DNA from: Candidatus Saccharimonadia bacterium
Lineage (GTDB): Bacteria; Patescibacteriota; Saccharimonadia; Saccharimonadales; 2-12-FULL-41-12
NCBI GenBank assembly: GCA_963717365.1
Contig: OY970327.1
Location: 459,599-523,598 of the forward strand
DNA: 64,000 bases
Direction: 5' to 3'
The notes below the pieces were generated by a model. It searched no databases and was not told the DNA's origin. It saw only the letters and a list, made by a program, of their open reading frames with translations. This document shows, in pieces, positions 1,696 through 20,025 of this stretch; position 1 is the first letter of the stretch; each line of letters starts with the position of its first letter. The position numbers were made by a program, and so were the translations under genes.

Positions 1696-2469
1696 ATGCC
1701 TAAAATTACATCCAAAGATGGAACGACAATTGCTTACAATAAAAAAGGACAAGGACCTTTAGTTATTCTGGTACTTGGAGCACTAAATAGGCGAAGCCAA
1801 GGTAAGAAGTTAACAGAGTTACTATCGGATAGCTTTACGGTCGTAGCCTATGACCGTCGAGGCCGAGGAGAGAGTACAGACACTCAGCCGTACTCCACAT
1901 ATAAGGAAGTAGAGGATATTAAAGCACTCATCGACACTCATTGCGGCAACGCATTCTTATATGGTCATTCTTCTGGCTGTATACTAGCCTTGATGGCAGC
2001 CATCAAATTAGACAAGCAGGTTAACGCCTTAGCATTATATGAATTACCTTATAATTATGATCCTTCCTCACAAATAGAATCACAAGCATACAGAAAAAAG
2101 CTTGCACAGTTTCTTGATGAAGATAAAACCGGTGAAGCCGTAACTTTATTTGTTAAGTCAGTCGGCGTAACCGATAAGCAGATCGCAGCGATGCAGCGCC
2201 TTCCAATGTGGAAAGGCCTAACAGCAATGGCACCTACACTTGCTTACGACACTATTGCACTCATAGAACAGTACCCGACGTTAGATACCAAAGATATTTA
2301 TGCAAAGACACTTTTACTGTACGGTGCCAAAAGTCCGTCATTTATGAGCGATACCGCAAAAAAGCTGTCAAATTCTATGCAAGATGCAAAATTGGAATCA
2401 TTAGAAGGGCAAACTCATGATGTTAAAGCAGATGCTCTCGCGCCAATCTTGTCTGATTTCTTTAACTAA
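1696..2469 (+). CDS. Alpha/beta-hydrolase fold protein
   Basis: 257 aa with nucleophile elbow GHSSG (LYGHSSGCILAL) and an HG-like N-terminal strand. TGT-TACAAT lies 10 nt upstream of the ATG. Confidence 0.7.
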   Translation: MPKITSKDGTTIAYNKKGQGPLVILVLGALNRRSQGKKLTELLSDSFTVVAYDRRGRGESTDTQPYSTYKEVEDIKALIDTHCGNAFLYGHSSGCILALMAAIKLDKQVNALALYELPYNYDPSSQIESQAYRKKLAQFLDEDKTGEAVTLFVKSVGVTDKQIAAMQRLPMWKGLTAMAPTLAYDTIALIEQYPTLDTKDIYAKTLLLYGAKSPSFMSDTAKKLSNSMQDAKLESLEGQTHDVKADALAPILSDFFN

Positions 2470-2540
2470 ATACCTAATTATTCATATAAAGACTACTACT
2501 TGCAGTTCTAAAAAGTTTGAAAATCACGCTTAATAACGGT

Positions 2541-2607
2541 TATAACTTCCTCTACCGTGGTGAGCCAAACATTTACAAATACCTTTTATGTGGTATTCTT
2601 GTTTATT
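2541..2607 (+). promoter_or_regulatory. Cassette promoter module copy 1 (upstream GTGAGCC motif, -35, palindrome/extended -10, leaderless ATG)
   Basis: TATAACTTCCTCTACCGTGGTGAGCC at 2541-2566, -35 TTTACA at 2572-2577, ATACC..TGGTAT with -10 TATTCT at 2594-2599, and ATG at 2608. Confidence 0.6.
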
Positions 2608-2835
2608 ATGAGTAGTTCTGAAAAATTTCCTGAGCCTAGAATAAGCATTCCAGAGAATAGCGATGCTTTTAAGGACTGGGAAAGACGACGTGATGCTGGC
2701 GAATTAGAGCAGGCGCCCTCAGAAAGCACTTTACCTACTGATATGCCTGAGATTCGAATAGGTATTCCAGAGAATAGCGATGCTTTCAAAGAGTGGGGAA
2801 AAAACCGAGATACTAATAATCATCCTAACTCGTAA
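2608..2835 (+). CDS. Small hypothetical protein with internal IPENSDAFK(D/E)W repeat
   Basis: In-frame ATG 8 nt after the -10 box. The track start at 2557 reads through the promoter module and is unlikely to be real. A 23-nt exact internal DNA repeat is present (2647-2669 and 2764-2786). Confidence 0.5.
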   Translation: MSSSEKFPEPRISIPENSDAFKDWERRRDAGELEQAPSESTLPTDMPEIRIGIPENSDAFKEWGKNRDTNNHPNS

Positions 2836-2860
2836 TCGCTAAATCCTTGCTTAATAGTAG

Positions 2861-2927
2861 CTATAACTTCCGCTATTGTGGTGAGCCAGATTTTGACAGG
2901 TTACCACTTTTGTAATATTTTTGTTTT
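2861..2927 (+). promoter_or_regulatory. Cassette promoter module copy 2
   Basis: CTATAACTTCCGCTATTGTGGTGAGCC at 2861-2887, -35 TTGACA at 2893-2898, a 17-nt spacer containing TTACCACTTTTGTAAT, -10 TATTTT at 2916-2921, and ATG at 2928 (6-nt gap). Confidence 0.65.
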
Positions 2928-3152
2928 ATGGAAATCAATAAAGAGCAAGTCTCTGAACTAGCCGACGCTTTTGAAGCTCTAATGCACCCCTTAAAGACAT
3001 TTAGGGTTGCGCGTGTAGGTACCACAGTTCTGGCATTAAGCGGAGCCGCAGAATTTGTAAATTTTGTGAGCTTTACAATTGGTGAAAGGGATGTAAGCGA
3101 CTTCACTTCTGCGTCAGAGATCCTTTTAGCCGGAGTTGCAATTGGGGTTTAA
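2928..3152 (+). CDS. Small hypothetical protein (74 aa)
   Basis: ORF starting exactly 6 nt after the -10 box. No recognisable domain. Confidence 0.5.
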   Translation: MEINKEQVSELADAFEALMHPLKTFRVARVGTTVLALSGAAEFVNFVSFTIGERDVSDFTSASEILLAGVAIGV

Positions 3153-3230
3153 GAATCGCGGGAAACCTTAGGCGCCAACGAGCCGAAGAACAACAGGCGT
3201 CGCGATCATCCGCACTTATAGTTCAAGGTA

Positions 3231-3288
3231 AGTCCATTAGCGGTAGCCATATATTGACTAATTACCACTTTTGTGGTATTTTTCTTTT
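3231..3288 (+). promoter_or_regulatory. Cassette promoter module copy 3
   Basis: TCCATTAGCGGTAGCC, -35 TTGACT at 3254-3259, a 17-nt spacer with ATTACCACTTTTGTGG, -10 TATTTT at 3277-3282, and ATG at 3289. Confidence 0.7.
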
Positions 3289-3732
3289 ATGGAATTTTTA
3301 TCAAGCTTAGATGGATCGATTATCCCAGATCCAAGCCAGTCACCTACAAGAGAGCAGCTTGAAAGAACTCAGGCAGCAATGGAATTCTTTAAAGGCAATG
3401 CCGAGCGGGTAAGGCATTTCACGCAAAGAGTTGAAGAATTAGGACGTACTGGCGAAGATACTGTAATTACCCTAATAGATGTGGATGACCGAGTAGGCAA
3501 AGTACTCGCAGATATGTTAATGCCTGGGCACGATTGGCAAAGGTATCGTGATGCAGGCGAAATCCCAGTCGCTAGAGGATTGGCTGCAAAAGATGGAATT
3601 CCAGAATTTTTAAAGGATGCTGGTTATGAGTTGGCAGCTAACGAACTTTTAGCAACCAACGATCTGAGGGTGGTTGTATTAAATTCAGGGGTCGCTCTAG
3701 TATTAGATGTAGAGTTTAGCGGGCAAAAATAG
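3289..3732 (+). CDS. Hypothetical protein (147 aa)
   Basis: The ORF track starts at TTG 3271, which is inside the promoter palindrome. ATG 3289 fits the leaderless pattern. No domain recognised. Confidence 0.55.
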   Translation: MEFLSSLDGSIIPDPSQSPTREQLERTQAAMEFFKGNAERVRHFTQRVEELGRTGEDTVITLIDVDDRVGKVLADMLMPGHDWQRYRDAGEIPVARGLAAKDGIPEFLKDAGYELAANELLATNDLRVVVLNSGVALVLDVEFSGQK

Positions 3733-4051
3733 TTGCGAAGTACATCCGCTAATCTGACACCAATCTCCTGAGTTAGCGGGCAAAATCTAGTTTTATTGCA
3801 ATAAACTTCCTCTATTACGGTGAGCCGATTTCCATTATTGGAACAAAAGGCCATCGTATCGAATGGCTTTTTTAGTTCCCACCGAAGTAAATCACTCTCA
3901 AGCTGTAAGTTCGAAAGCACCATATTGATAAGTGATCGTTTTGTGAGGTAGGGAGATAGAGAAATGACAGCCCTGTCAGAAAGTTATCTTTGTTGGTTAA
4001 TATTTAATATCAACTTGCACAAGCGTTGCAATCAGAGGATAATCTGGTCAA

Positions 4052-4660
4052 ATGAATAGCTTAATACGATCAGTCTGGAACATAGTTAAGATCTTGTGTA
4101 AGAGCAGGACATTTACATTGGCATTCATGAGCGCCGTAGCTTTGTCCGTCTTCGGATTAATAATTAGATACCGGGTAGCTGGAGATAATATAGCAGAACC
4201 AGCCCAGACAGTACTTATATCGCTTACGACAACTCTTTATGCCTATATTACTGGGCTATTCACAGGAATCGTCTACAGATATAAGAAATATGCTGATATG
4301 GCAGGTACATACACGGGTTACGCATATAAAAACGAAGACGACGTGGGAAATATAGACTTTTACCAGATAAAAGGTGACCCCCAGTCGGTTGCAATACTGG
4401 ATTATGTCGGCGGAACTGATTTTAGAATTCAAGTAAGCATTAATTACCCACCTGAGCTAAATGATTTAGTCTGGGTTGGTGACTTCACAATAACTTCATC
4501 GAATACGGCATCAATCGGTTGGTGGTATACAAATGACCGCGTTAAATACGAGATAGGCCATAAGCGAGCAGTTCTTATAAATGATATTATAGTTTTATTC
4601 TCTGATGGCACGTCTATTCATGGCCGAGAAGTATTTATCAAAGACAAAAAATTAAATTAA
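4052..4660 (+). CDS. Hypothetical membrane protein (two predicted TM helices plus a C-terminal soluble domain)
   Basis: 202 aa with hydrophobic stretches FTLAFMSAVALSVFGLII and VLISLTTTLYAYITGLFTGIV. No cassette module lies upstream. Confidence 0.5.
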   Translation: MNSLIRSVWNIVKILCKSRTFTLAFMSAVALSVFGLIIRYRVAGDNIAEPAQTVLISLTTTLYAYITGLFTGIVYRYKKYADMAGTYTGYAYKNEDDVGNIDFYQIKGDPQSVAILDYVGGTDFRIQVSINYPPELNDLVWVGDFTITSSNTASIGWWYTNDRVKYEIGHKRAVLINDIIVLFSDGTSIHGREVFIKDKKLN

Positions 4661-4700
4661 TTTGCTAATAATATTTAGGATAGTTACAAAAATACATTCA

Positions 4701-4774
4701 ATAGTGAGAGCGGAAGCATTTACAAATATCACTTTTTGTGGTATTCTTGCTGTATCTACAAATAAGGAGACACT
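4701..4774 (+). promoter_or_regulatory. Cassette promoter module copy 4 (this copy has a leader with SD)
   Basis: ATAGTGAGAGCGGAAGC, -35 TTTACA at 4719-4724, a 17-nt spacer ATATCACTTTTTGTGG, -10 TATTCT at 4742-4747, then SD AAGGAG at 4764-4769 and ATG at 4775. Confidence 0.6.
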
Positions 4775-5056
4775 ATGCCAGTTAGTATTCATGAACAAAT
4801 TGGTACGCGTACAGTCAGTCAAATGGATCAGTTGGCAATGCAACTTGGCGTTGAACTGGAAAATATGCCAGCCTTCGCAGCCGGCAGGAATACTGCTGGC
4901 TGGGTATTCGCAGATCAAGATGTACCCGACGACTTATCCGAGGTAATAACAGTCATCAGAGAACAGGCTACCAGCACTCCATTTGGCGGCCATGTTGATC
5001 GACCAGAGTTTATCTTAGGCTCGGTCATGGCCGCTTTTGCAATCAGAACTCGATAG
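4775..5056 (+). CDS. Hypothetical protein (93 aa)
   Basis: ORF with a good SD. Overlapping ORFs in other frames (4652-4918 minus, 4662-4946 plus) have odd composition and no start signals. Confidence 0.55.
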   Translation: MPVSIHEQIGTRTVSQMDQLAMQLGVELENMPAFAAGRNTAGWVFADQDVPDDLSEVITVIREQATSTPFGGHVDRPEFILGSVMAAFAIRTR

Positions 5057-5067
5057 AACTGCACCCC

Positions 5068-5145
5068 AGTTGCAAAGTACGTTCACTAGCGGGAGCCGAT
5101 CATAAGCAATATGAAAATACCATATTTAGTGGTATTTTTAGTTTT
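5068..5145 (+). promoter_or_regulatory. Cassette junction motif plus promoter module copy 5
   Basis: AGTTGCAAAGTACGTTCACTAGCGGGAGCC at 5068-5097, ATACCATATTTAGTGGTAT with -10 TATTTT at 5133-5138, and ATG at 5146. The -35 is weak. Confidence 0.55.
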
Positions 5146-5493
5146 ATGGAAAAGCGACTTACCCTTGGTATGTACGGTGGAGAATTTAAAAGAGCGCCAC
5201 ACGATTCCACGCTTTTCAATTTACGAACAAGTCAATTTCGAGAAAGTCTTGGCGAAGAAAAACGACTAGTAAAAAATGCTGGCTGGTACAACGCAGATGG
5301 GCATAAACTGGGTTGGGGAGACTTAGGACCTCAAGACATCAAATCAGTATGCTCCGGACTAAATGAGAGTGAGATATTTGTCGTCCTTAACGAGGATGAT
5401 TCATTTCACGAGTTTGTAGAAGGGCACGATGCGTTAAGCGGAATCGGTTCACTTGCGAACGTCGACTCAACCGCGGAATATCTGCCGAGCTGA
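5146..5493 (+). CDS. Hypothetical protein (115 aa)
   Basis: ORF starting 7 nt after the -10 box. No domain recognised. Confidence 0.55.
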   Translation: MEKRLTLGMYGGEFKRAPHDSTLFNLRTSQFRESLGEEKRLVKNAGWYNADGHKLGWGDLGPQDIKSVCSGLNESEIFVVLNEDDSFHEFVEGHDALSGIGSLANVDSTAEYLPS

Positions 5494-5499
5494 GCCTAC

Positions 5500-5688
5500 G
5501 TGGCAGGTAAAGCTGTTCTCGCCTTAGTGTCAGGCAAAATGATAGATACAGGCAAATACGGGACAGTTAAGGCATTTCACGATTTATACCCTGGATATTA
5601 TCCTGAATTAGAGATTGTCCAGCAAGCAGAGCTTGAGCTTTACCTAACACTGGAAAATCTTGCGCATCAGCAAAGTAAAGTTGCATAG
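5500..5688 (+). CDS. Hypothetical small protein (62 aa, GTG start)
   Basis: ORF starting 7 nt after the upstream stop, so possibly translationally coupled. Its 3' end overlaps junction motif copy 5679-5708. Confidence 0.35.
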   Translation: MAGKAVLALVSGKMIDTGKYGTVKAFHDLYPGYYPELEIVQQAELELYLTLENLAHQQSKVA

Positions 5689-5754
5689 CGTATCCACTAG
5701 CGAGAGCCGCGGCTTGGCAAATACCACTTTTGTGGTATTTTGTGTATGAGCTAG
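5679..5754 (+). promoter_or_regulatory. Cassette junction motif plus promoter module copy 6, orphan (drives only ATG-AGC-TAG)
   Basis: AGTTGCATAGCGTATCCACTAGCGAGAGCC at 5679-5708, -35 TTGGCA at 5714-5719, perfect ATACCACTTTTGTGGTAT, -10 TATTTT at 5736-5741, then ATG AGC TAG at 5746-5754. Confidence 0.55.
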
Positions 5755-5758
5755 TTAT

Positions 5759-6070
5759 TTATGATGACTTTTTAGATTGCTTATCGAGCGCCCAGCGCAC
5801 CGAAGGGCTAATTGACTTGTCTGGGCGGTGAATGCAACCGATCCAGCAACAGGGACGGCGTTTTCCTTCGAGAAGTTCTTCGCACGATCTTTGGATGCGA
5901 CGATTTCTAGTTTCAATTTGTTTGGCATTCTTAACCCAGCAGATAAATTCATTACGCGCGAGCGGGGTAATGTCTCCCCATTGAGCGAGCACTTTTGGAT
6001 CAGCAACCAGCGCTTTGCGTAGATCGGCGGGCATTTTGTGTACTGTGCCGCCAAATATTTTTGTAGCCAT
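5759..6070 (-). CDS. YdeI/OmdA-family (bacteriocin-protection-like) protein
   Basis: 103 aa. ARNEFICWVKNAKQIETRNRRI...GKRRPCCW matches the C-terminal signature of that family as I recall it. The alternative 149-aa ORF 5755-6204 in another frame looks spurious. Confidence 0.6.
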   Translation of the reverse strand: MATKIFGGTVHKMPADLRKALVADPKVLAQWGDITPLARNEFICWVKNAKQIETRNRRIQRSCEELLEGKRRPCCWIGCIHRPDKSISPSVRWALDKQSKKSS

Positions 6071-6168
6071 GTATTTATTTTACATGTTTTGGTAACTAGG
6101 AAGAAATGCCTGGGACGGGAATTTCTAACGAAAATTTGGAAGTCTTTTTGTTTTGGTATAGTTAGAGC

Positions 6169-6582
6169 ATGATAAGAAGTTATCGAGATTCTGATTATGA
6201 CCAATTGAAGAATTTATATTTACATCCGGAGTGGTACGGAGGTGTATTTGACGAAAGTCGTGACGGGAGAGAACGACTAGCGGCTAAAATACAATCTGAT
6301 TCCGAAGCCATTATAGTGTATGAAGATGATTCAACTATTCTCGGCACTGTATCGATCATTGAAGATGGAAGAGTTGCTATGTTGTATCGTTTTATTACCA
6401 GCCCTGAAAACCACGATATGGCGAAGAAACTCTATGCTGCTGCGACCAAAGTGTTAAAAAAACGCGGCCATACTGAGGTTTTAGTATATTCCGCGATTAA
6501 TAATCCTGTTTTAGACAAGAAGTATATGCAATTAGGGATGATCAAAGGCAGTGATTATAGGTGTTTTTGGGCAAGTTTGTAA
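6169..6582 (+). CDS. GNAT-like N-acetyltransferase (tentative)
   Basis: 137 aa of GNAT-like size and pattern (IRSYRDSDYDQL...GHTEVLVY). Leaderless-type promoter TGG-TATAGT at 6157-6162, 6 nt before the ATG. Confidence 0.45.
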   Translation: MIRSYRDSDYDQLKNLYLHPEWYGGVFDESRDGRERLAAKIQSDSEAIIVYEDDSTILGTVSIIEDGRVAMLYRFITSPENHDMAKKLYAAATKVLKKRGHTEVLVYSAINNPVLDKKYMQLGMIKGSDYRCFWASL

Positions 6583-6610
6583 ATTATTGTAGTACAAAAC
6601 TTGCTTATAT

Positions 6611-6659
6611 GAGTAGCCAGTACATTGACGAATCACTACTTTTGTGATATTAATTACTT
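6611..6659 (+). promoter_or_regulatory. Cassette promoter module copy 7
   Basis: GAGTAGCCAG, -35 TTGACG at 6625-6630, 17-nt spacer AATCACTACTTTTGTGA, -10 TATTAA at 6648-6653, and ATG at 6660. Confidence 0.6.
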
Positions 6660-6983
6660 ATGAAAGAAATAGCTTCAGAGTTATGGGAAGTCTTAGTGCC
6701 AGCTTCAAACAATAATGGTGATGAATTTACTGTTGTGCACCACCAGCTTTGGGATGAAGAAGTGCGACTGATAACTGGCGGACTTACCATAATGCGCACC
6801 GCCAAGGGACGATGGGAAGATTCTCAAGGAAATCTATTTGCCGAGACGGTGATACCCGTAAGAGTTGCATGCGATGAAGAAAAAGTACGATCAATTATGG
6901 ATCTTACTCTGCGCCACTATGGCCAGCTAGCCGTGATGGCATACAGAATCAGTGATCAAGCCCTGATATTAGAAGCTGAATAG
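6660..6983 (+). CDS. Hypothetical protein (107 aa)
   Basis: ORF 6 nt after the -10 box. No domain recognised. Confidence 0.55.
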   Translation: MKEIASELWEVLVPASNNNGDEFTVVHHQLWDEEVRLITGGLTIMRTAKGRWEDSQGNLFAETVIPVRVACDEEKVRSIMDLTLRHYGQLAVMAYRISDQALILEAE

Positions 6984-7010
6984 CTTGCTACTATTGTTAT
7001 ACTTGTCATT

Positions 7011-7475
7011 ATGTTAGAAAAACTCAATATGACGATCAAACAGATCAGTAACGAAATTATTGATTTAAGTACTGCGCTTGCTCATAAAATGGAAAAGTGG
7101 AGCGACACCGCTACGCGCCCAAACGATCTAGACACTACAGAGTGTGTCGGCTTTATAAATAAGGAAACTGCTGTGGACGGCATACAGATTGTTGTTGACC
7201 TGCAGGCGCCACCTGATAATAATCAGGCGATTTTGCGTACTTGGGCTATTGATATTCAACGCGATAGCAATAATATTGAACGCTTTAATAACATTCAGTT
7301 AGAGTTTGCGATACGTTACGACCAAGCCCGCTCGGTCGCGCAAAAGGGCAGGGAAGTTACCCGTGAAGACATGAAAGCACTTTTAAATCTTAACGACACG
7401 AGCTTGATACACCTAGTAGTAAGTGATCAAGCTGGTGTTGGACGAGACAGGCGATCTACTTGGTCAGCGCTATGA
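7011..7475 (+). CDS. Hypothetical protein (154 aa)
   Basis: ORF only. Its last ~15 codons look non-protein-like, and an overlapping frame continues to 7584 (see findings). Confidence 0.45.
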   Translation: MLEKLNMTIKQISNEIIDLSTALAHKMEKWSDTATRPNDLDTTECVGFINKETAVDGIQIVVDLQAPPDNNQAILRTWAIDIQRDSNNIERFNNIQLEFAIRYDQARSVAQKGREVTREDMKALLNLNDTSLIHLVVSDQAGVGRDRRSTWSAL

Positions 7476-7696
7476 ATTGGACGTAAATCAGCTAAATCAA
7501 AACGAAGACGCACAAACAGAAATTGGCGAGACATTAAATGCGGTATTGTCCAAGCTACAACAGTCTGCTCAACGCGAATCATAAGCAAAAAATATGTACA
7601 TTCATGAAAGCCATTTCACTTATGCGTAAAGCTTTCATTTGTTGACAAAATTAAATAAAGATAGTACGGTTATCTCAATAGTTTAAGGAGAATGCA

Positions 7697-7942
7697 ATGC
7701 GGGAAGCATATAAAGTTGACATATTAAGCCCTGAAGAATGTGCAGAGTTGGTCCTTATTGAGCCGGAGGCAGTATATATCCATATGGCTAATGACAAAGT
7801 TCCCTATATTGATCGTCAAGACGGTACATACGCAATACCATTGGGAGGCTTTCTGGGTTCTTTAGAAGGTCTTCTTGATTTAAAACCTCAGTTAATTGAG
7901 CAAAATGAACGTATGCTAGCGCTCAACCTAGAAGAAGATTAG
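7697..7942 (+). CDS. Small HTH protein, excisionase/MerR-like (HTH_17-type) (tentative)
   Basis: 81 aa with SD TAAGGAG upstream. LSPEECAELVLIEPEAVYIHMANDKVPYIDRQDGTYAIPL resembles the Xis/AlpA-type pattern (LT.eEaA.lLgvs..tvyrl...g.lP..r.g....ip). Confidence 0.4.
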   Translation: MREAYKVDILSPEECAELVLIEPEAVYIHMANDKVPYIDRQDGTYAIPLGGFLGSLEGLLDLKPQLIEQNERMLALNLEED

Positions 7943-8013
7943 TGAGCTCCTGTGAAGAGTAGGGAAACTATTTGTTACCTATTGGTTGAGCTGTTTGGAG
8001 AAGGTTTATAATT

Positions 8014-8682
8014 ATGGCAGTTGGATTGGTGCGCTCTGAACTTCCTGATTCTTGGTTTGATCTGTATCGGCATTTTGCCAACAATGTTAGTGGTATGCCG
8101 GTAAAGAAACTTGCTCGTAAGGATGCTTTACTCTTTACTGATACTATTCCTCCCGATGGATTCGGTACAGGCTTTTTTTATAATACACCCGCTAGTGTCA
8201 GCCAATTAGTGGTTGCTCTGGCGGTAGCACCCAATCCAGAGATTCGAGAGTTAGCCAGTAACAGTATGCTGTTTCCCAGCTTAGCTAGCTTAGCGAAAGC
8301 AATGCGTGTCAAAAAAGTACTAAAAAATTTCAAGCTATTAGATTTGGGTTGCGGCATAGTGCCTGGTTTTGCCATGGTTGCTAAAACCCTGGGGGCTGAA
8401 GTACATACTGTAGATGGCGAATCGCTTGGATCAGGCCAAGCAAAATTAGTAGATACGCACACTGTTGTTGATCTATGTTCCCCGGAAGCTATTCCAGCCA
8501 TCAAAGCAAATACAGGCGGTCAGTTTGATTTTATTAGCGAATGTATAATTGGCTCAGTCCCAGGGCATCCTAGCTGGAAAACTCCTCTGAAAGATGATCT
8601 GTATCTCTACGGTGAACATCTATTAAAGCCTAGTGGCTTTCAACATCATGCAGGCTATGTTCACGTACTACAAAAAACGTGA
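8014..8682 (+). CDS. Class-I SAM-dependent methyltransferase-like protein (tentative)
   Basis: 222 aa. LLDLGCGIVPGFAMVAKTLGAEVHTVD resembles motif I (LDLGCGxG) plus an acidic post-I residue. Confidence 0.4.
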   Translation: MAVGLVRSELPDSWFDLYRHFANNVSGMPVKKLARKDALLFTDTIPPDGFGTGFFYNTPASVSQLVVALAVAPNPEIRELASNSMLFPSLASLAKAMRVKKVLKNFKLLDLGCGIVPGFAMVAKTLGAEVHTVDGESLGSGQAKLVDTHTVVDLCSPEAIPAIKANTGGQFDFISECIIGSVPGHPSWKTPLKDDLYLYGEHLLKPSGFQHHAGYVHVLQKT

Positions 8683-8693
8683 ATAGATAACTA

Positions 8694-8730
8694 TTTACAA
8701 ACATCAGTATTTGTGGTATTTTTAGCTTTA
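8694..8730 (+). promoter_or_regulatory. Cassette promoter module copy 8
   Basis: -35 TTTACA at 8694-8699, 17-nt spacer AACATCAGTATTTGTGG, -10 TATTTT at 8717-8722, and ATG at 8731. Confidence 0.55.
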
Positions 8731-9309
8731 ATGAATAATCGAAGTGTAGAGCTCAGGTTCGGCATGCAAACTGCTCCAATTAGGTTTCCGGAAGAAAGAG
8801 TTGTTCGCAATAACTGGATTACAGATATATACGGCATGAATCTGGCATATGGCGATATGAACGTGCTGGATATTGCCTCGGTTGAGAGACAAGTTGATAG
8901 TTTTGGTGCGTTGCTGTTAATTGAAGAACAGATGGGGAGTGCTTTGCGTCTTGGTCAGGCTGCAAGCTCGTTTTATGAACCCAGCCAGGATCAACTTGCT
9001 GTAGTAGAAGAGTTATCTCGACTAGATGCTTCAGACAATTATATCCCATCCTTACTAAATGATCGGGCGCTACATGAAGTACCTGCGCTGTATTTATCTC
9101 GCGCAGCAATTGTCAAAGACAATCTACTTTTTAAGGGGATACTTGGGGAAAGATTTGCAGAAGCCTTAAGCTATACTGAAAAGACACCACAACTTGATGA
9201 TCCAGAGAAGAAGGAATTATATGACCGAGCTGCCGCATTAAAAAGCATAAATTTGTCTCCGGCAGCTTTTATAATCGAAGCTGCCAAAGCCGCGCACGGC
9301 ATTAAGTGA
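8731..9309 (+). CDS. Hypothetical protein (192 aa)
   Basis: The track start GTG 8713 lies inside the promoter. ATG 8731 fits the module. No domain recognised. Confidence 0.5.
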   Translation: MNNRSVELRFGMQTAPIRFPEERVVRNNWITDIYGMNLAYGDMNVLDIASVERQVDSFGALLLIEEQMGSALRLGQAASSFYEPSQDQLAVVEELSRLDASDNYIPSLLNDRALHEVPALYLSRAAIVKDNLLFKGILGERFAEALSYTEKTPQLDDPEKKELYDRAAALKSINLSPAAFIIEAAKAAHGIK

Positions 9310-9315
9310 TCTATC

Positions 9316-9807
9316 ATGATTAGACAGAATTCAACCACAGGAATACCTCGGGGACGGACTCGGTTTGAAGATGCTTGGGAGAAGCCACTAGTCGGAGATC
9401 ATTTATTTAAATCAGAACGCTATGGCGTTATGGCTCTAGCTGATCCTTTCGCAAAATTTCCCATGCATGTAGTTGTGGCGCCACGGGAGGGCATGCCGGA
9501 TGAGGAGGTATATTTTAGTGACTTACCTCGAATCACTAAACGGTTGCTGCACGAGGTTTCCGACGCGGTAGAAGAAAAAATCAAACAGCATTGTCAGCCA
9601 GGACAGCGTGTTATTACACATACTGAAGGGTTTGGTATTCCTGATCATGCCCATATAGTGCTATTTGCAGCTGAACGCGGCGAGGGTCAATCTTTATATG
9701 TACCCTGTTCAGCCGGGGCATTAGCAGTTCAACATACACTAGAAATAATTTCATTTAGTCCTATTGAAGCCCAAGCCCTTGAGCAACGGCTTGACCAAGT
9801 TTCATAG
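9316..9807 (+). CDS. HIT-like hydrolase/nucleotidyltransferase superfamily protein (tentative)
   Basis: 163 aa, 6 nt downstream of the previous gene. PMHVVVAPRE ... PDHAHIVLF resembles a degenerate histidine-triad motif. Confidence 0.4.
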   Translation: MIRQNSTTGIPRGRTRFEDAWEKPLVGDHLFKSERYGVMALADPFAKFPMHVVVAPREGMPDEEVYFSDLPRITKRLLHEVSDAVEEKIKQHCQPGQRVITHTEGFGIPDHAHIVLFAAERGEGQSLYVPCSAGALAVQHTLEIISFSPIEAQALEQRLDQVS

Positions 9808-9883
9808 TTTCGCTGTCTCAAAATACATACTCCTACTGTATATAGTCTCGATATCTACGATTGACACGTATTAGCATGAGCAA

Positions 9884-9918
9884 TATTTTAAATTTCGTTT
9901 TCGTGGTATTTTTTCTAT
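9884..9918 (+). promoter_or_regulatory. Cassette promoter module copy 9 (degenerate left half)
   Basis: TTTTCGTGGTATTTT with -10 TATTTT at 9907-9912 and ATG at 9919 (6-nt gap). A TTGACA at 9861-9866 is too far upstream to serve as the -35. Confidence 0.45.
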
Positions 9919-10323
9919 ATGTTTGAAAAATTAGAAAATATCTCATTTAGTCGTCGTGCTGGACTCGGGCTTATCACATTAACGGGCATCGGTGTAGCAA
10001 TCGGTTGCAAGCTGTACCAGTCAGGTGGACAAAATAATAAAGAAACTTTGGTGCGTGGCATACCATATACCGAAACCCAATTTCGGCGTGCCGGCTGTGC
10101 GTTAGTGCCGTTCGTTGAGGAGTGGAAACTTAGTCTTAACCCTGAGAATTTAGATTTAATGGCATATGTTGTGCTGAAACATGCTTCTAGCCAAGAGGGG
10201 CTTGATTCAGCAGAAAATTATCAGCAAATCGATGATAGTGTCCGAGAATTAATAAATGAGGATAGAGAAAGTCATGCCCGTATGCTGGAAGCCTGGCAGC
10301 GTGATATTGATAGTCGCCAATAG
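9919..10323 (+). CDS. Hypothetical membrane-anchored protein (134 aa)
   Basis: N-terminal hydrophobic segment AGLGLITLTGIGVAIG. No domain recognised. Confidence 0.5.
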   Translation: MFEKLENISFSRRAGLGLITLTGIGVAIGCKLYQSGGQNNKETLVRGIPYTETQFRRAGCALVPFVEEWKLSLNPENLDLMAYVVLKHASSQEGLDSAENYQQIDDSVRELINEDRESHARMLEAWQRDIDSRQ

Positions 10324-10349
10324 TTCAATAGGTACTTGTTAATTTAAAG

Positions 10350-10378
10350 TTGCTATGCTTTTGAGTTAGTGTTAGAAT
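10350..10378 (+). promoter_or_regulatory. Putative sigma70-type promoter of the GC-rich cassette
   Basis: TTGCTA at 10350-10355, a 17-nt spacer ending in TGT, and TAGAAT at 10373-10378. It lies about 170 nt upstream of the first island gene. Confidence 0.5.
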
Positions 10379-10549
10379 GACACTTACATCAGTTCGTGTT
10401 TGTAATACACTTATCCATGCGGAGCTACGTCTCCCAGATGTAGAACCTTAACAGCCTGGCAAAATACTTAGTAAGACGAAGAGTGCAGGCAGCACGCCGA
10501 CTCTTCAGAACATTCCATACTTCAACTACCACGAAAGGATGTTATAGGT

Positions 10550-11362
10550 GTGGTAATAACGAATGGCACTACTCAGTACCGCATCGGTAGACTAGTGGCA
10601 GAAGCTGCAGCATTTCGGCTCTACATCTGCAAGGATGTTGCTGCCGATAAGCAGTATCTGCTACAAGTCGCCGCCCAGATCGAGCACAACAGTGGACTCG
10701 ACCGTGCGGCGTTCGTACTAAAGAAGCTCAAGCAGACTTCCGATCTCTATGAGACGGAATACGCAAAGGTTTCAGAGGGACGGATGCTCAACTACGATCG
10801 TCTCTTCCCAGGTTTGGTGGACAGTTTTATCTGCGATGAGCAGGGCAAGCGTCGGGTTAACATCCTGACGTTTAAAGATATCGACTCCATCTCTATGATG
10901 GTGCCGTTGTCTAACCTGATCAACAAGGATCGGCTGCGCATCGATCTGGAAACCAGTGCTTGGATCATGGGACGGCTTCTAAAGCTGCTTGCATTTACGC
11001 ACGGCCAAGGAATCACCGTTGGCATGCTCACTGGTAACAACGTGCTGATCAGTCCGTCGAACCACTTTGTTGTGGTTCTCGACTGGTCGGCGGCACGGAC
11101 GTTCCAGCGGGAAGTTCCGCTCGAAGATCGCAGAGCCGACATCGCACGCGCCGCGCAAGCAGTGTTTGCAGCCATCGGCGGTGATCCCGCGACGCAGGAC
11201 TATCCGTACAGCACAGACGACAACCGTCGGTATGTCGAGCATCTCATGCGCTTGGCGAGCAGGCGGGAAGGCAATGCCGAACGGGCTCATGCCAACTTCT
11301 ACAAGTTGGTCTACGAGCTGTTTGGCAAAGGGTTCCGACCCTTCACTACGTTGCCCCTATAG
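10550..11362 (+). CDS. Protein-kinase-like fold protein, probably atypical or pseudokinase
   Basis: 270 aa with a GTG start about 10 nt after AAAGGA. THGQGITVGMLTGNNVLISP aligns with the HRDLKxxNxLI catalytic loop but lacks the catalytic Asp. VVVLDWSAA matches a DFG-like Mg-binding Asp. GC-rich codon usage. Confidence 0.45.
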   Translation: MVITNGTTQYRIGRLVAEAAAFRLYICKDVAADKQYLLQVAAQIEHNSGLDRAAFVLKKLKQTSDLYETEYAKVSEGRMLNYDRLFPGLVDSFICDEQGKRRVNILTFKDIDSISMMVPLSNLINKDRLRIDLETSAWIMGRLLKLLAFTHGQGITVGMLTGNNVLISPSNHFVVVLDWSAARTFQREVPLEDRRADIARAAQAVFAAIGGDPATQDYPYSTDDNRRYVEHLMRLASRREGNAERAHANFYKLVYELFGKGFRPFTTLPL

Positions 11363-11383
11363 ACACCCTCATGAGGAGAAGTA

Positions 11384-12553
11384 ATGGGATACGATACGTT
11401 TTCAACCACGTCATTCCGCAGGATCCACGATTCTGCGACTCGTGGCGGCACGACCAGTGCCACCCGGGCAGCCGAGGAACGCATCAACCAAGGTCTCGGT
11501 CTCGACCCGTTGGTCGACCCGAAGGGCTTGGCGCACCTCGGTCCGGTTCGCATGTCGTTGCCGCGCTTCGAAAAGCAAGGTGACTACTGGCTCCTGACCA
11601 AGGGTCTGCCGATGGCCGAGGAAACGCTCCTGGACACCACAAGCTCGATGGGCAACAACGTCGACATGGCCTTCGCGGCTTTGCCAAACGCCTACGAGAT
11701 GCTGACATCCGGGGAACAGCCAATCCTTGGCCGGTACGACCCCCAGATCGCTACGGCGATCTTCAACGACGTACAAGACAATATGTACCGGGGCAACATT
11801 CCCGTCCTGGCCCGTAGCCAGTTCGAGATGGCCGACAAGATCGCGCAGCAAATGACGCTGCTGGTTCCCGGTCGCGGTGGGTGCGGTAACGGCAAGGAAG
11901 ATCCCCAGTTCGGGCTCTTCGGCGCCGCCTACCTGACCGCTGCCTCGATCAACAAGTGGGGTCTCAAGTACTACCACTTCACAATCTCCGATGAGCCGAT
12001 TGTCGATTACATCGACCTTCAGTGGCTCAAGACCATCTTCGGAGATGACGTGTTGGACCGAGTCAAGGAAAACGGCTACGACTTCGCAGCCGCCGAACTT
12101 CCCGATACCGCGCAAGCGGTCAGCGACCTGCAGATGCGGGCACATGCCTTCTTCCTGCAGGTTCCGGGATACGGTGCCGAACGACGTGTGACGGATCAGT
12201 GGACTGAGCTTTACGGCGATGACCACACCATCATGCTTCCCGGCAGCACCGAACACGTGCACTACCTGAAGGCCGTCATCATTGGTCTGACCGAAGGAGT
12301 GCTCGACCTCAATTCGGCCGACACGTTTCTGCGCGACCACGGGCTGGACCGACGCACCGCCGATTCAATCGTACGTGCCGTGGCCCACATCCCGCTGGCC
12401 GCCCAGACGCAGGCGCCGAACTTCGACAAGATCCCCAAGGCCGGCGATCTCTTCCAAGAGAAGACCGACCTGTGGCCGATCGATTCGAATGAGGTACCGG
12501 AGCAGTCCCAGAGCCAGCCGGATGCAACCGATGACGAGCTGAACTGGCTCTAG
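11384..12553 (+). CDS. von Willebrand factor A (vWA)-like protein with a MIDAS-like motif
   Basis: 389 aa with SD GAGGAG. LLDTTSSMG is a DxTxS variant of the DxSxS MIDAS motif following a beta-strand. The tail is acidic (DATDDELNWL). Confidence 0.5.
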   Translation: MGYDTFSTTSFRRIHDSATRGGTTSATRAAEERINQGLGLDPLVDPKGLAHLGPVRMSLPRFEKQGDYWLLTKGLPMAEETLLDTTSSMGNNVDMAFAALPNAYEMLTSGEQPILGRYDPQIATAIFNDVQDNMYRGNIPVLARSQFEMADKIAQQMTLLVPGRGGCGNGKEDPQFGLFGAAYLTAASINKWGLKYYHFTISDEPIVDYIDLQWLKTIFGDDVLDRVKENGYDFAAAELPDTAQAVSDLQMRAHAFFLQVPGYGAERRVTDQWTELYGDDHTIMLPGSTEHVHYLKAVIIGLTEGVLDLNSADTFLRDHGLDRRTADSIVRAVAHIPLAAQTQAPNFDKIPKAGDLFQEKTDLWPIDSNEVPEQSQSQPDATDDELNWL

Positions 12554-12595
12554 GTCACACCGTCATCAAACTACAACTGTCCAGATAGGAGACAA

Positions 12596-13981
12596 ATGAC
12601 TCATAAGGTCTACGTCGTCACCGATCTTGGACCAGGTGACGGTGGCAAGGGTGGTGTGGTGCACAAAATCAGTAGCATGATGCGTGCCCACACCATTATC
12701 AAGCGCGGCGGCGCACAGGGAAGCCATGGCGTCCGCACCTCCAGAGGCGAGCAGTTTGCCTTTAGCCAATGGGGGTGCGGTACGTTTGAAGGTATTCCCA
12801 CCTTTCTCTCCGAGCAGATGATCATCAGTCCGGAGGGATTGCTCAACGAAGCCGCCGATCTGCGCTACCTGCACGGCATACACAACGCTTGGGATCTACT
12901 GACCGTAGACGAACGAGCCTTGTGTGCTACACCGTTCCACGGGATAGCTTCTCATCTAAAAGAACTGGCGAGACGCGATAACCCTCGTGGAACGGTTGGC
13001 ACCGGCGTTGGTGAGGCGTACCGCAGCTACCAACAACTGCCGGAACTCGCAATCATGGCCAAAGACCTGAAAGGAGGAGGTCTGCGAGACCGGCTAGCAG
13101 CGATCAGGGACCACATCAGGTCCGACCTTCAACCGGTTATCAACGGCGAGTTTCTTGCCAGCGATCTGGACGCTTACAACAAGGAGGTTGGCCTACTGTA
13201 CGACGACGCGTTTTTGGACTACGTTACCGTACGGTTTGAAGAAGCCGCCAAGCAGGTGAATATCGTCGGTTCCAACTACCTGGGTGATGAAATACTTGCT
13301 CGGGAAGGGGTGGCCGTCGTAGAAACCTCGCATGGCGTTCTAACCGACCGCCTTACTGGCTTTCACCCGCATACTAGTGCTATCCGGACGCTGCCGCGCT
13401 TTACGCATGGCATGCTTTCAGATGCCGGCTATGACGGAGAAGTGGTCGACATTGGAGTAACCAGAGCCTACGCCGTTAGGCATGGAGCTGGTCCGATGCC
13501 AACCGCCAACACTGAGATGACGGAGCGCCTGCTGCCTGGCAGCGCCAAAGGCGCTAACCGTTATCAGGGAGAGATACGAGTTGGTCCTCTGGATCTCCTG
13601 CTGCTTCGATATGCAATCGATGCTTGTGGTGGCCCGGTCTCATTTGATGGCCTTGCCATAACCTGGTTCGACCAAATCCAAGTAAATGGAGTCTGGGAGA
13701 TATGCAACGCGTATTTCAATGCTGACAAGCCCACCTTTTTCACACCTCAGGGTGAGATCAAGATTGATCGCAGCACGGACGTACAGCATCTTGAGTATCA
13801 GCGTGGCCTTGGCCGCCAGCTACTCAGCTGCTCGCCAGAAATCACGGCGCTGCCGGTCAATTCGGATATCAGCCATGATGAGCTATATGCCATTTGTGCT
13901 GACACCATGCAAGCGTTGACCGCAGTACCTGTCCGAATGGTTTCATTTGGACCAACAGAGCTCGACAAGCTCTGCAAGTGA
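12596..13981 (+). CDS. Divergent adenylosuccinate synthetase (PurA/PurZ) family enzyme
   Basis: 461 aa with SD AGGAG. Motif-by-motif match to PurA as I recall it. [11 protein letters not shown] aligns with QWGDEGKGKIV, and GGAQGSHGV with [20 protein letters not shown] aligns with GTTGRGIGPAY, and [20 protein letters not shown] with [35 protein letters not shown] aligns with KAYSTRVGAGPFPT, and SFGPTE with STGPDR. Confidence 0.75.
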   Translation: [461 protein letters not shown]

Positions 13982-14010
13982 CCCGCAAGACAAAAAACAA
14001 GGAGATAACC

Positions 14011-15159
14011 ATGTCCGACGAGACAGATACGACCACCGAAGCCAACGGCTCCGACCCCGTCGTTGACAAGCTCAAGGAATACGGCGCTGCCGACGAGACG
14101 ATCAGCAATATCCAGAACCTGGGTGTCACCACCCTCGAGGATCTGGCCTTGCTGAACGAGACGGATCTGGTGGACGCAGGCGTGAAGACGATTCCGGCGC
14201 GCAAGCTGCTGGTCTCGCTCAAGCCGGCAACACCACCCGTCGACACGGCAGCGCTCGGTGCGGCTGCGTTCGACAGCGTTCTGCCGCTCGTACCCGATGA
14301 CGGCTCGTGGCTGGCAGCCCTCAAGACCGGTGGCGTCTTGAAGGTCGATCAGTCGACTGTCATCTCGGCCATCAGGGCGGCCCTGGCTGACCGTGTGGGT
14401 CTCTTCGAGATTCCGGCCAAGCTGGTCGCCGCCATGGAGCAGTTCGCCGCCAGCAACGACGAGCCGGTGGATCCGTCGTTCTTCACTCTGCGTGAGCAGC
14501 TTACGCAGCGGAAGTACGCCGAGATCTTCGAGGCCATCCCCGGTCTCAACGGCAGCTACGTCACCGACGGCCGCAAGAAGCAGCTGTTCGACCGCATGGA
14601 CAGCAACCTCTGGCCAGCCATCATGGCCTTCAACGACCAGCTGAAGAGCTGGCAGGAGACCTGGATGCAGCAAGGGGCGAACCCCGGCATGCTGTTGGCG
14701 GCAATCGCTTCCAACAGCGGCAGCGGACTGCAGATGCCTCCCGGCATGATGCAGCCGCCCGACACGAGTGGTCTGCGCGACTACGCCGATGCCATCAACG
14801 ATGCCGTGAACCGTGTGTTCGCCGGCACCGGAGTGCAGATCGCGGCCGCGTTGGCCTACGACGCTTCGCAGATCAAGCGGACGCTGGAAGACCCCCGTCT
14901 CCCGTCCATGATCGGCGCGGCAAACCGTGACCAGATGCTCAAGCAGTTGAATGTCACGGTCAGCTCCACCTACCCCAGGTTGGAGCTCAACCTCACCCGG
15001 TTCGTCCTGGCTTGCATGCAGGCCAAGGACCAGCCATCGGGCAATGAGGAGCTGCAGTACTTCGGCATGCTCAACATGCTCGGCTCCCAGATTCCCTGGT
15101 CTGAGCTGGGCTATCACAGCAACCAAGTACACGGCATCACTGGTCGTACGAGGATCTAG
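14011..15159 (+). CDS. Hypothetical protein (382 aa), last gene of the GC-rich cassette
   Basis: ATG 14011 lies 7 nt after AAGGAG (13999-14004), whereas the track start GTG 13978 overlaps the purA-like stop. The N-terminus is acidic, with a small helical region (LGVTTLEDLALLNETDLVDAGVKTIPARKLL) and a Q/P/M-rich linker. No domain recognised. Confidence 0.6.
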   Translation: MSDETDTTTEANGSDPVVDKLKEYGAADETISNIQNLGVTTLEDLALLNETDLVDAGVKTIPARKLLVSLKPATPPVDTAALGAAAFDSVLPLVPDDGSWLAALKTGGVLKVDQSTVISAIRAALADRVGLFEIPAKLVAAMEQFAASNDEPVDPSFFTLREQLTQRKYAEIFEAIPGLNGSYVTDGRKKQLFDRMDSNLWPAIMAFNDQLKSWQETWMQQGANPGMLLAAIASNSGSGLQMPPGMMQPPDTSGLRDYADAINDAVNRVFAGTGVQIAAALAYDASQIKRTLEDPRLPSMIGAANRDQMLKQLNVTVSSTYPRLELNLTRFVLACMQAKDQPSGNEELQYFGMLNMLGSQIPWSELGYHSNQVHGITGRTRI

Positions 15160-15182
15160 TCCTCACCGCGACCAGTCCCAAA

Positions 15183-15217
15183 GGACCGGCGAAACCTCTG
15201 ATAGGTTTCGCCGGTCC
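15183..15217 (+). terminator. GC-rich hairpin terminator without a U-tract
   Basis: GGACCGGCGAAACC (15183-15196) pairs perfectly with GGTTTCGCCGGTCC (15204-15217), giving a 14-bp stem and 7-nt loop, 24 nt after the stop. No T-run follows. Confidence 0.6.
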
Positions 15218-15339
15218 AGCAGGGGCTCTCGATTGATGTTAGTCTTTACCGACTATTTCCAATCTTGAGCCCCTTTTTTCATATTTATTACTTTAGCCAA
15301 CGAGACGTGACCTTGGATGTAGATTTTATTATGGAAGAG

Positions 15340-19551: not shown

Positions 19552-20025
19552 ATGGAACAATTATGCGACAACGTGAGCGTTGGGGTTATATTACAAAATC
19601 CACAAGGTGAGGTGCTATTACTAAATCGGGCACGCTTTCCTTATGGATTAGCCCCACCGGCTGGCCATTTAGACGATCATGACAACTTAGAGCAAGCTGC
19701 TGTCACTGAAGTATATGAAGAAGTAGGTTTGTCGGTGGCAACTTCTAGCTTAGTAAAAGTTATCGATGCGCGCCGAGTTAATAACAAATGCCGGCGGAAA
19801 AATGGCAATTTCCATATCTGGACAGTTTATACAGCTGAAAACATTGAAGGACAAATAACCGCAAGCCCCGAAGAAACCGATGGGGCGACGTGGCAGTCAC
19901 CACGGGAGCTGCAACAACTGGCTGACCAAACACGCTCAAATCCAGAGAGGGCACACTACGCTGGAGCTCAAATTCTAGAATTGATCTGGCTCGAGTTCTT
20001 TACTGAACTCGGGTTTTTTAAATAA
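19552..20025 (+). CDS. Nudix hydrolase
   Basis: 157 aa, starting directly after the apt stop. The Nudix box is PAGHLDDHDNLEQAAVTEVYEEVGL. Confidence 0.7.
   Translation: MEQLCDNVSVGVILQNPQGEVLLLNRARFPYGLAPPAGHLDDHDNLEQAAVTEVYEEVGLSVATSSLVKVIDARRVNNKCRRKNGNFHIWTVYTAENIEGQITASPEETDGATWQSPRELQQLADQTRSNPERAHYAGAQILELIWLEFFTELGFFK

Follow-up and report, generated by a model that had tools for sequence, protein, structure and literature searches.

A palindromic leaderless promoter module that may double as a terminator at the 5′ junctions of apparently exchangeable gene cassettes in Saccharibacteria

What does a palindrome do when it lies across the promoters of a row of small, largely unrelated genes? 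The question is raised by a 64,000-nucleotide stretch of DNA from a Candidatus Saccharimonadia bacterium (contig OY970327.1, positions 459,599 to 523,598 of the forward strand), which we call the window and whose own numbering we use throughout. Near its left end, short orphan genes are preceded by copies of one promoter module, in which the inverted repeat ATACCAC-N4-GTGGTAT overlaps an extended −10 box shortly before the ATG. A first-pass annotation had read this repeat as a shared operator for one dimeric regulator. We favor another reading, to which we give about even chances, namely that the palindrome is a terminator hairpin fused to a leaderless promoter and marks the 5′ end of cassettes that can be exchanged. 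The Patescibacteria, Saccharibacteria among them, are epibionts of other bacteria, with very small genomes in which many genes have no known function. We know of almost nothing about patescibacterial promoters, terminators or accessory-gene gain, and a literature search on Saccharibacteria promoters, leaderless starts, cassettes or integrons turned up nothing relevant.

The module forms a discrete class, distinct from the generic promoter. A 24-nt position weight matrix (PWM) built from the ten annotated copies recovered exactly these ten sites in the 64 kb, all on the + strand and with scores of 22–31, whereas the next-best site scored 13.8; within the window, therefore, the motif is specific to this class and does not accompany most promoters. 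Simple pattern counts gave 8 matches to ATACCAC-N4-GTGGTAT with up to three mismatches (2.25 expected) and 11 matches to the core TTTGTGGTATTTT with up to two mismatches (2.87 expected), numbers that none of 100 shuffles reached in either case. The layout comprises a −35 box (TTGACA/TTTACA), a spacer of 16–17 nt and TGTGgTATTTT, a TRTG-type extended −10. The promoter originally proposed reads as sigma-70-type and was matched by a consensus scan in six of the ten copies (−35, 16–17 nt spacer, TATTTT or TATTCT), with the upstream TG flagged in five of these six; the −35 boxes are poor in the copies preceding 5146, 9919 and 20253. The proposed leaderless start also holds, as the ATG lies 4–9 nt downstream of the −10 in nine of the ten copies, the exception being the copy at 4775, with a 27-nt leader carrying AAGGAGA. 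The transcript probably begins at or near the ATG. A leaderless-type −10 (TAnnnT), with other −10 sequences, was found 4–9 nt before the start codon of 25 of the 63 window genes, which suggests that leaderless geometry is a genome-wide habit and not peculiar to the array. As a by-product of the pattern search, an unrelated conserved family of leaderless promoters, TTGACAcc-N9-TTTGTGGTATTTTTA-gcc-ATGGCCATTGACAAAAA, was seen on seven metagenome contigs (L146, L151, L158, L176, L177, L191 and L235; loci outside the window carry the prefix L).

The arms of the palindrome appear to be under selection for pairing. Six of the ten window copies have hairpin energies of −4.4 to −10.8 kcal/mol, compared with about −1 for shuffled sequences, and the left half-site is intact or wobble-compatible in six of ten. 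Among 47 distinct copies, 55 arm positions depart from consensus, comprising 25 G.U pairs, 5 compensated Watson-Crick pairs, 10 A.C and 15 other mismatches. Because a gapless MAFFT-based alignment misaligns the copies whose loop is 5 nt long, pair counting from it was dropped in favor of a custom permutation test, in which left arms taken from other copies served as the control: for the nine variant right arms, 56 of 63 positions pair with the copy's own left arm against 49.1 expected (P = 0.002, G.U counted). The excess of G.U over A.C was discarded as a test of RNA structure, since left-arm base composition alone predicts that bias. Individual compensated stems include ATAGCAC/GTGCTAT in L063, whose contig also has consensus copies; GTACTAT/ATAGTAT after tRNA-Ala in L098, a contig that has a consensus copy after tRNA-Phe; ATGTCA/TGATAT and ATATCAT/ATGGTAT in L239; and ATCAC/GTGAT at 6632 in the window.

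The module is also followed by a T-tract, with 7.5 T in 10 nt compared with 3.8 for generic leaderless promoters (P = 9e-6). Pairing between spacer and −10 shows no excess in 29 generic leaderless promoters (136 pairs, 134.6 expected), apart from the promoter of gene 1696, which rules out a hairpin over the −10 as a general habit of this genome. That promoter, an ordinary one belonging to a hydrolase gene (1652–1695), carries the inverted repeat GTAACAA-CTTCT-TTGTTAC over its extended −10, with 7/7 pairs (p = 0.006), and is the sole generic promoter with such a feature. One module copy, at 5746, lies between convergent genes and has no open reading frame (ORF) of its own. As the presumed start at the ATG is downstream of the 3′ arm, the hairpin could form in RNA only when transcription arrives from upstream. 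We therefore favor the view that the stem-loop and U-tract would act as the terminator of the preceding unit, the 3′ arm and U-tract doubling as the extended −10 of the next; the termination activity itself is read from sequence. The demands of RNA polymerase on TRTGnTAnnnT, those of a terminator for T and G-C, and the complementarity of the arms would together explain much of the sequence identity among copies.

The position of the module is consistent with such a role. The annotation had noted a conserved CTA..G.GAGCC string upstream of the −35; the conservation stands, but the string is in fact the 3′ end of longer elements of 30–45 nt, which fall into families A and B in the window, with a third, C, in the related locus L239. 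All start on the stop codon of the ORF before them or immediately behind it, and all end in GAGCCA, the hexamer that also ends tRNA-Asn (..CCGGAGCCA). Downstream of 23 such elements, defined by regular expression, we counted 11 modules, 9 canonical terminators (a G+C-rich hairpin with a T-run) and 3 cases with neither. The canonical terminators start 10–20 nt past GAGCCA, window examples of an element followed by an ordinary terminator being 477–551 and 3790–3873, and tRNA genes in related loci have either a canonical terminator or a module downstream at equal distance. This alternation after elements and tRNAs suggests that the module occupies the terminator slot.

Element A (consensus GCTTAATnnCGGTTATAACTTCCTCTATnGTGGTGAGCCA) has three copies in the window and eight more spread over six other loci. 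Its window copies, all on the + strand, lie at 2528–2567 (GCTTAATAACGGTTATAACTTCCTCTACCGTGGTGAGCCA, with the GAGCCA end 4 nt before the −35), at 2849–2888 and at 3790–3827, the last being followed by a canonical terminator (3845–3873) and no module. Element B (consensus (TAG)TTGCGAAGTACGTCCACTAGCGrGAGCCA) has three window copies besides degenerate ones, and many in relatives. The copy at 477–505 (+; TTGCGAAGTGTGTCCAGTATGGGGAGCCA) directly follows TAG, which we read as the stop codon of an ORF extending upstream beyond the window, and precedes a terminator (520–551) and then the promoter of gene 642, so the array extends further left than the start at 2541 given by the annotation. The other two, both +, lie at 5068–5098, before module 5, and at 5679–5709, before module 6, where the element overlaps the stop codon of ORF 5500–5688. 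A B-like element ending ..TCCATTAGCGGTAGCCA precedes module 3 (3219–3249, +), and weaker B-like remnants were seen at 3731–3761, 4683–4713 and 6590–6619. Element C (GGTTCAAGACCGG..GAGCCA) resembles the 3′ end of a tRNA. Pair counting over ten copies of element A gave two possible stems that are 90% paired, compared with 28–56% in slid controls, with modest covariation; RNAalifold did not predict the proposed two-stem fold, and no Rfam family matched any of the elements. They could be att- or attC-like sites or RNA elements of the 3′ untranslated region.

Comparison of relatives shows what is gained and lost. Three rhizosphere contigs (L167, L197 and L131) that are 91–99.5% identical differ by whole units. 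In L167, tRNA-Asn ends in ..GGAGCCA and runs directly into cgagaattt and a terminator. L197, 97.7–99.5% identical to L167, has 718 bp extra exactly after the tRNA-Asn ..GGAGCCA, consisting of an agcTTGACTA module, a GTG-started ORF of 198 aa and an element A that ends ..GGTGAGCCA immediately before the same cgagaattt. At a different place, L131 carries 1559 bp extra compared with L167, between one GAGCCA and another; this insert holds three units, of which the first opens with an ordinary terminator and promoter and the other two with the module.

The gene at 3289 (g3289; genes are named by their start) gives a second view of the same process. All of its 32 homologs are from metagenomes or metagenome-assembled genomes (MAGs), those with a name belonging to Patescibacteria or Candidatus Saccharimonadales, and no two genomes examined give the gene the same neighbors. 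A diverged module is kept in front of it in five of eight cases, and the element in front of that module is B-like in the window and in L243, B in L131, C in L239 and a tRNA-Asn fragment in L241. L239, whose g3289 protein is 84% identical, carries an array that starts from tRNA-Asn, comprises over 20 small genes, most of them without a known domain, and has GAGCCA-ending elements at most co-directional junctions; it shares three genes with the window (g3289, 3-dmu-9_3-mt and OmdA), in different order and orientation. A second type of junction, in which element B is followed by a AGTCAGAACC hairpin and a TTGAAACC promoter, is reused in front of genes that are unrelated to each other, in the window as well as in L131 and L161, and 18-nt fragments of the tRNA-Asn 3′ end mark some junctions in L107 and L241. 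Altogether, the indels of L197 and L131, the contexts of g3289 and the reused junctions indicate that the unit of variation is a 5′ junction, one or more ORFs and a 3′ element ending in GAGCCA. The hypervariable island or cassette array that the annotation had suspected is thus borne out.

From these observations we propose that a hypervariable array of self-contained cassettes takes in the DNA from left of 477 to about 10.3 kb, each cassette being made up of a 5′ junction, one or two usually domain-less ORFs and a conserved 3′ element. The module would be the commonest 5′ junction, a sigma-A-type promoter (−35 TTGACW, 16–17 nt, TGTGgTATTTT) from which a leaderless mRNA would begin at the ATG and whose spacer holds the complement of the extended −10. 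In a transcript arriving from upstream, AAAUACCAC-UUUU-GUGGUAUUU would fold into a hairpin followed by a U-tract, so that a single 35-nt stretch would most likely end the preceding unit, be it a cassette or a tRNA, and start the next. Such a stop/start junction would suit this organism, because many of its genes are leaderless and an inner leaderless AUG in a read-through transcript is expected to be poorly translated. Cassettes would be gained or lost whole at GAGCCA, in relatives mainly at the 3′ flank of tRNA-Asn, by a recombination mechanism that we infer from these boundaries.

An exact search for the 18-mer ACCACTTTTGTGGTATTT across one genome per species returned two kinds of match, from Bacteroidota and from Saccharibacteria/Saccharimonadales MAGs. 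In the former, the 18-mer recurs in Chitinophagaceae and Flavobacteriales (L007, L042, L044 and about 60 other Bacteroidota loci); at all three loci that were checked it lies between convergent genes with flanking A- and T-tracts, and it appears to be a conserved terminator at several orthologous positions. In the latter, the whole module recurs, with TTGACTA upstream and an ATG 5–9 nt downstream, in MAGs and metagenome contigs of 41–55% G+C, and it directly follows tRNA genes for Asn (L020), Asp (L082) and Phe (L098). A metagenome search with the left arm unconstrained added about 18 Saccharibacteria-type copies amid many unrelated promoters, and 8 of 10 tested ORFs behind external modules had no Pfam domain. 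Phage origin was rejected, since an exact search of IMG/VR with the module gave no match and the 11 matches to the cores of elements A and B there were all by chance, without the flanking element; likewise, two junctions compared by blastn with GenBank phages and PLSDB plasmids had no match.

A number of observations weigh against the terminator-promoter reading. Four of the ten copies (2928, 8731, 9919 and 20253) are essentially without a hairpin and yet keep the rest of the module; arm covariation falls to P = 0.09 with Watson-Crick pairs only; and right-arm changes are uncompensated in the window copies at 2928 and 20253 and in L243. The stem is short and AT-rich, and one copy in ten passes a simple terminator scan, which demands at least three G-C pairs. 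Many external copies come from exact-match searches, which inflates the apparent conservation, and the near-identical 33-mer across genomes could reflect a sequence-specific protein. As for the cassettes, no integrase, transposase or recombinase was found in the scanned window ORFs or among 10 neighboring large ORFs of related loci, and the 6-bp boundaries could stem from microhomology-mediated deletion. Farther afield, a Y1_Tnp (IS200/RAYT-like) gene (L243, 5029–5658, −; 31.7 bits) lies 3.6 kb from the g3289 cassette, and in L245 (729–8055) a small-gene array borders on a gene for a large serine recombinase that is accompanied by terminase, ParB-methylase and reverse-transcriptase genes; both are weak leads for the enzyme.

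A sequence-specific protein is what the operator reading supposes, in the form of a conserved dimeric helix-turn-helix repressor that binds the 7-4-7 palindrome over the −10 and controls a regulon of accessory or orphan genes, for example for host contact. An 18-bp palindrome over the −10 with half-site centers 11 bp apart is classical repressor geometry; RNA polymerase has no need of the left arm; both arms are near-identical in primary sequence across genomes of 41–55% G+C; and the module is class-specific, tied to genes without known domain and absent, as a palindrome, from generic promoters. However, the arms covary, differing arm pairs occur within one contig, and neither the T-tract nor the terminator slot is predicted by an operator. 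The left half-site is missing in 4 of 10 copies, exact-match searching accounts for some of the sequence identity, the arrays examined share no consistently linked regulator gene, and the 81-aa protein proposed as regulator is unique to this genome. The operator is thereby weakened, and we regard it as unlikely. The selected arm pairing could instead belong to a site that folds in single-stranded DNA, the palindrome together with elements A, B and C forming a recombination site in the manner of attC, IS200/IS605 or REP (repetitive extragenic palindromic) sequences, served in trans by a recombinase or HUH enzyme, with promoter activity as a by-product or second use. The indels end exactly at GAGCCA, 8–16 nt before a hairpin, and the two stems of element A, the Y1_Tnp gene of L243 and the tRNA-Asn fragments of L107 and L241 would all fit. 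Against this, cassettes opening with an unrelated canonical terminator enter at the same GAGCCA, so the palindrome is not required; the deduced crossover lies outside it; the loci scanned hold no linked recombinase; and, in contrast to IS200/IS605 ends, a cassette does not have similar hairpins on its left and right. A 4-nt spacer does not fit the core sites of tyrosine recombinases. We think this explanation has a small chance of being right.

It is also conceivable, though improbable in our judgment, that only a promoter has been propagated, either as a duplicated mobile promoter or as one for an alternative sigma factor, and that the palindrome is a functionless accident of descent. TGGTAT at 14 nt from the −35 recalls sigma-B-type −10 boxes, and the second junction family, with its terminator and TTGAAACC promoter, is likewise reused. 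Putative mobile promoters are highly similar promoter sequences that precede non-homologous genes, whether in one genome or in several (Matus-Garcia et al. 2012, PMC3488235; Nijveen et al. 2012, PMC3575422), a definition that the homologous junctions before non-homologous genes satisfy. But a 7-bp complement is unlikely to arise by chance (roughly 4^-7), the arms covary, and the palindrome is retained in orthologous cassettes of diverged genomes.

The ten copies of the module, all on the + strand, differ in the state of both promoter and palindrome. Module 1 (2572–2607; ATG 2608) has −35 TTTACA, arms ATACC../GTGGTAT (2579–2596) and −10 TATTCT (2594–2599), with a PWM score of 26.9 and a hairpin of −5.6 kcal/mol. 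In module 2 (2893–2927; ATG 2928; TTGACA, −10 TATTTT; PWM 25.5, −1.2 kcal/mol) the palindrome is broken (TTACCAC/GTAATAT). Module 3 (3254–3288; ATG 3289; PWM 31.1, −7.9 kcal/mol) combines TTGACT, TTACCAC-TTTT-GTGGTAT, TATTTT and a T-tract, and is the sole copy that passes the terminator scan. Module 4 (4719–4774; ATG 4775; PWM 26.7, −7.1 kcal/mol), which includes the leader, has TTTACA, ATATCAC-TTTTT-GTGGTAT with a U.G wobble, and TATTCT. A weak −35 (ATGAAA) precedes ATACCAT-ATTTA-GTGGTAT and TATTTT in module 5 (5111–5145; ATG 5146; PWM 22.7, −8.5 kcal/mol), and TTGGCA precedes the perfect ATACCAC-TTTT-GTGGTAT and TATTTT in module 6 (5714–5745; PWM 29.5, −10.8 kcal/mol). Of the two repeats that the annotation had called perfect, this one (5721–5738) is so, and the one in module 3 (3262–3279) pairs at 6/7 positions. 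Module 7 (6625–6659; ATG 6660; PWM 22.3, −4.4 kcal/mol) has TTGACG, the shifted, compensated stem ATCAC..GTGAT and TATTAA. The left arm is degenerate in module 8 (8694–8730; ATG 8731; TTTACA, GTGGTATTTTT; PWM 24.3, −0.6 kcal/mol) and in module 9 (9884–9918; ATG 9919; no clear −35, CGTGGTATTTTTT; PWM 24.7, −0.1 kcal/mol), and a second TTGACA-17-TATTTT match lies in the region of the latter at 9861–9889. Module 10, outside the array (20218–20252; ATG 20253; TAGGCA, ATACTAT/GTGATAT, TATTTT; PWM 24.0, −1.5 kcal/mol), has a separate canonical terminator upstream at 19988–20021. Downstream of module 6 there is only ATG AGC TAG, and a convergent OmdA/YdeI gene ends there; the gene annotated at 5746 comes down to two codons and is not a gene. 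Two-codon start-stop ORFs (ATG AGC TAG or ATG CAT TAG) follow several modules (5746–5754 in the window, about 1340 on the reverse complement of L131 and about 4358 in L167); in L131 and L167 the real ORF begins some 50 nt further on, behind GGGAG. Such a mini-ORF may have a regulatory role or be left over from the replacement of one ORF by another.

The ORFs started by modules, all +, lie at 2608–2835, 2928–3152, 3289–3732, 4775–5056, 5146–5493 (with 5500–5688), 6660–6983, 8731–9309 (with 9316–9807) and 9919–10323. Other cassette ORFs have ordinary promoters of their own (4052–4660, 6169–6582 encoding a GNAT protein, 7011–7475, 7697–7942 and 8014–8682, all +), and the OmdA/YdeI gene within the array is on the − strand (5759–6070). 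The annotation described the module-downstream ORFs as unrelated small proteins without domains. This largely stood, as Pfam and PHROGs gave nothing for them except a weak match for g6660, and PADLOC gave nothing for the array ORFs; the ORFs are mutually unrelated save for one weak pair, g5146/g8731 (E = 2e-5). The product of g6660 (6660–6983) bears a weak likeness to the S-adenosylmethionine (SAM) lyase family (Pfam E = 0.0056, below cutoff; phrog_3543, 5e-6), and may be a phage-type SAM-degrading, anti-restriction-like protein. ORF 2608–2835 (75 aa) contains a 69-nt direct repeat (2629–2697 and 2746–2814, 78% identical) that encodes a peptide of about 23 aa twice (..IPENSDAFK[D/E]W..). The label HIT-like for 9316 drew no support from Pfam or the PDB.

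The regulator first suggested fared no better. The 81-aa protein of 7697–7942, labeled Xis/MerR-like, has no match in Pfam or the PDB and none to a helix-turn-helix domain, and a search of 5.8 billion proteins returned no homolog. As the module is spread widely through Saccharibacteria, this protein cannot be the conserved partner. A Crp-like gene, a further candidate, is present at 40682–41377; by inspection only, a Crp-type site was rejected because the CAC/GTG core has the opposite orientation to TGTGA-N6-TCACA, and a DnaA box because just 5/9 positions match. In seven related loci no regulator gene is consistently linked to the arrays.

The window has 44.6% G+C. Its remainder consists of ordinary housekeeping genes that have diverged from reference families, among them those for PRPP synthase, Apt, PurL/Q/M, OtsAB, Gdh, histidine kinases, an RND pump, Tgt and DAHP synthase. 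At both the DNA and the protein level the window matches Saccharibacteria MAG contigs; judging by these relatives, we take its source to be a Saccharibacteria-type chromosome of roughly 1.2 Mb. Exact-protein look-ups for strain variants returned one other sample only, with gene order identical to the window. An Rfam scan found tRNA-Ser as the sole family in the window and none in 2300–10500. To the right of the array, 10550–17106 holds a cluster of large proteins (270, 389, 393 and 588 aa) without family matches or any PADLOC match, and amid them a very divergent adenylosuccinate-synthase-like protein (12596–13981; 73 bits against a cutoff of 395). The intergenic stretch farthest to the left has a palindrome, AAAAAAGTAGGGGGGTACCCCCCTACT (345–372), with 9-bp arms GTAGGGGGG/CCCCCCTAC and a TA center, that looks like a bidirectional terminator.

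Taken as exchangeable cassettes, these units recall several known systems without coinciding with any of them. As in the cassette arrays of sedentary chromosomal integrons, short unrelated ORFs, many of unknown function, stand in tandem and co-oriented, and the array genes include GNAT, glyoxalase/VOC, NUDIX and OmdA types. A structured 3′ element runs from the stop codon to a short core at which cassettes come and go, and turnover between relatives is very high, with presence/absence variation at the site boundaries. Unlike integrons, the array has no IntI gene or attI beside it (window ORFs and the neighbors of related arrays were scanned), the core is GAGCCA, RYYYAAC/GTTRRRY attC cores not being seen in the elements by inspection, and the anchor in relatives is the 3′ end of tRNA-Asn. 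Integron cassettes rely on a common Pc; here each would bring its own promoter, since leaderless genes are probably ill served by one shared promoter upstream. The homologous promoter regions before non-homologous genes are shared with putative mobile promoters, but the reused unit adds a selected hairpin and a T-tract, sits at the defined boundary of a cassette and recurs in conserved form in many lineages of Saccharibacteria. Integrase-less accretion at tRNA genes, as for cis-mobilizable elements (CIMEs), also inserts exactly at a tRNA 3′ end, without a recombinase inside the units and with short tRNA-derived direct repeats at the junctions (GAGCCA here, and the 18-nt fragments of L107 and L241). 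In contrast, the present units are single genes of 0.3–1.5 kb that accumulate by the dozen, the repeat is just 6 bp at most junctions, and no cognate integrase was found in the loci scanned. REP sequences and bacterial interspersed mosaic elements (BIMEs), like Correia palindromes, are short, extragenic and able to terminate or to carry promoter elements, and one relative (L243) has a RAYT-like Y1 gene; unlike them, the module occurs in 10 copies in 64 kb, only at cassette junctions, in one orientation and at fixed distances from −35 and ATG, and, unlike in IS200/IS605 or REP-RAYT systems, there is no Y1 gene in the window and the structures at a cassette's 5′ and 3′ ends do not resemble each other. 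With operators of the LexA and CI/Cro type it shares an 18-bp palindrome over the −10 of several promoters, but its arms covary, a T-tract follows and no regulator was found in the loci examined. It is tempting to speculate, although we consider it rather doubtful, that Saccharibacteria capture single-gene cassettes by a route that is integron-like in outcome, with GAGCCA as a core provided by the tRNA-Asn 3′ end and by elements A, B and C, the elements in the role of attC, a terminator/promoter borne by each cassette and an unlinked recombinase, and that the arrays form their main store of lineage-specific orphan genes.

Leaderless starts appear to be frequent in this genome, and the widely conserved promoter/terminator junction could be put to direct use in new genetic systems for Saccharibacteria. 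The cassette model is testable, in that orphan genes would travel as self-sufficient cassettes into a 6-bp core beside tRNA-Asn. If true, it would explain the location and turnover of strain-specific genes in these epibionts, and would point to a recombination system behind that turnover.

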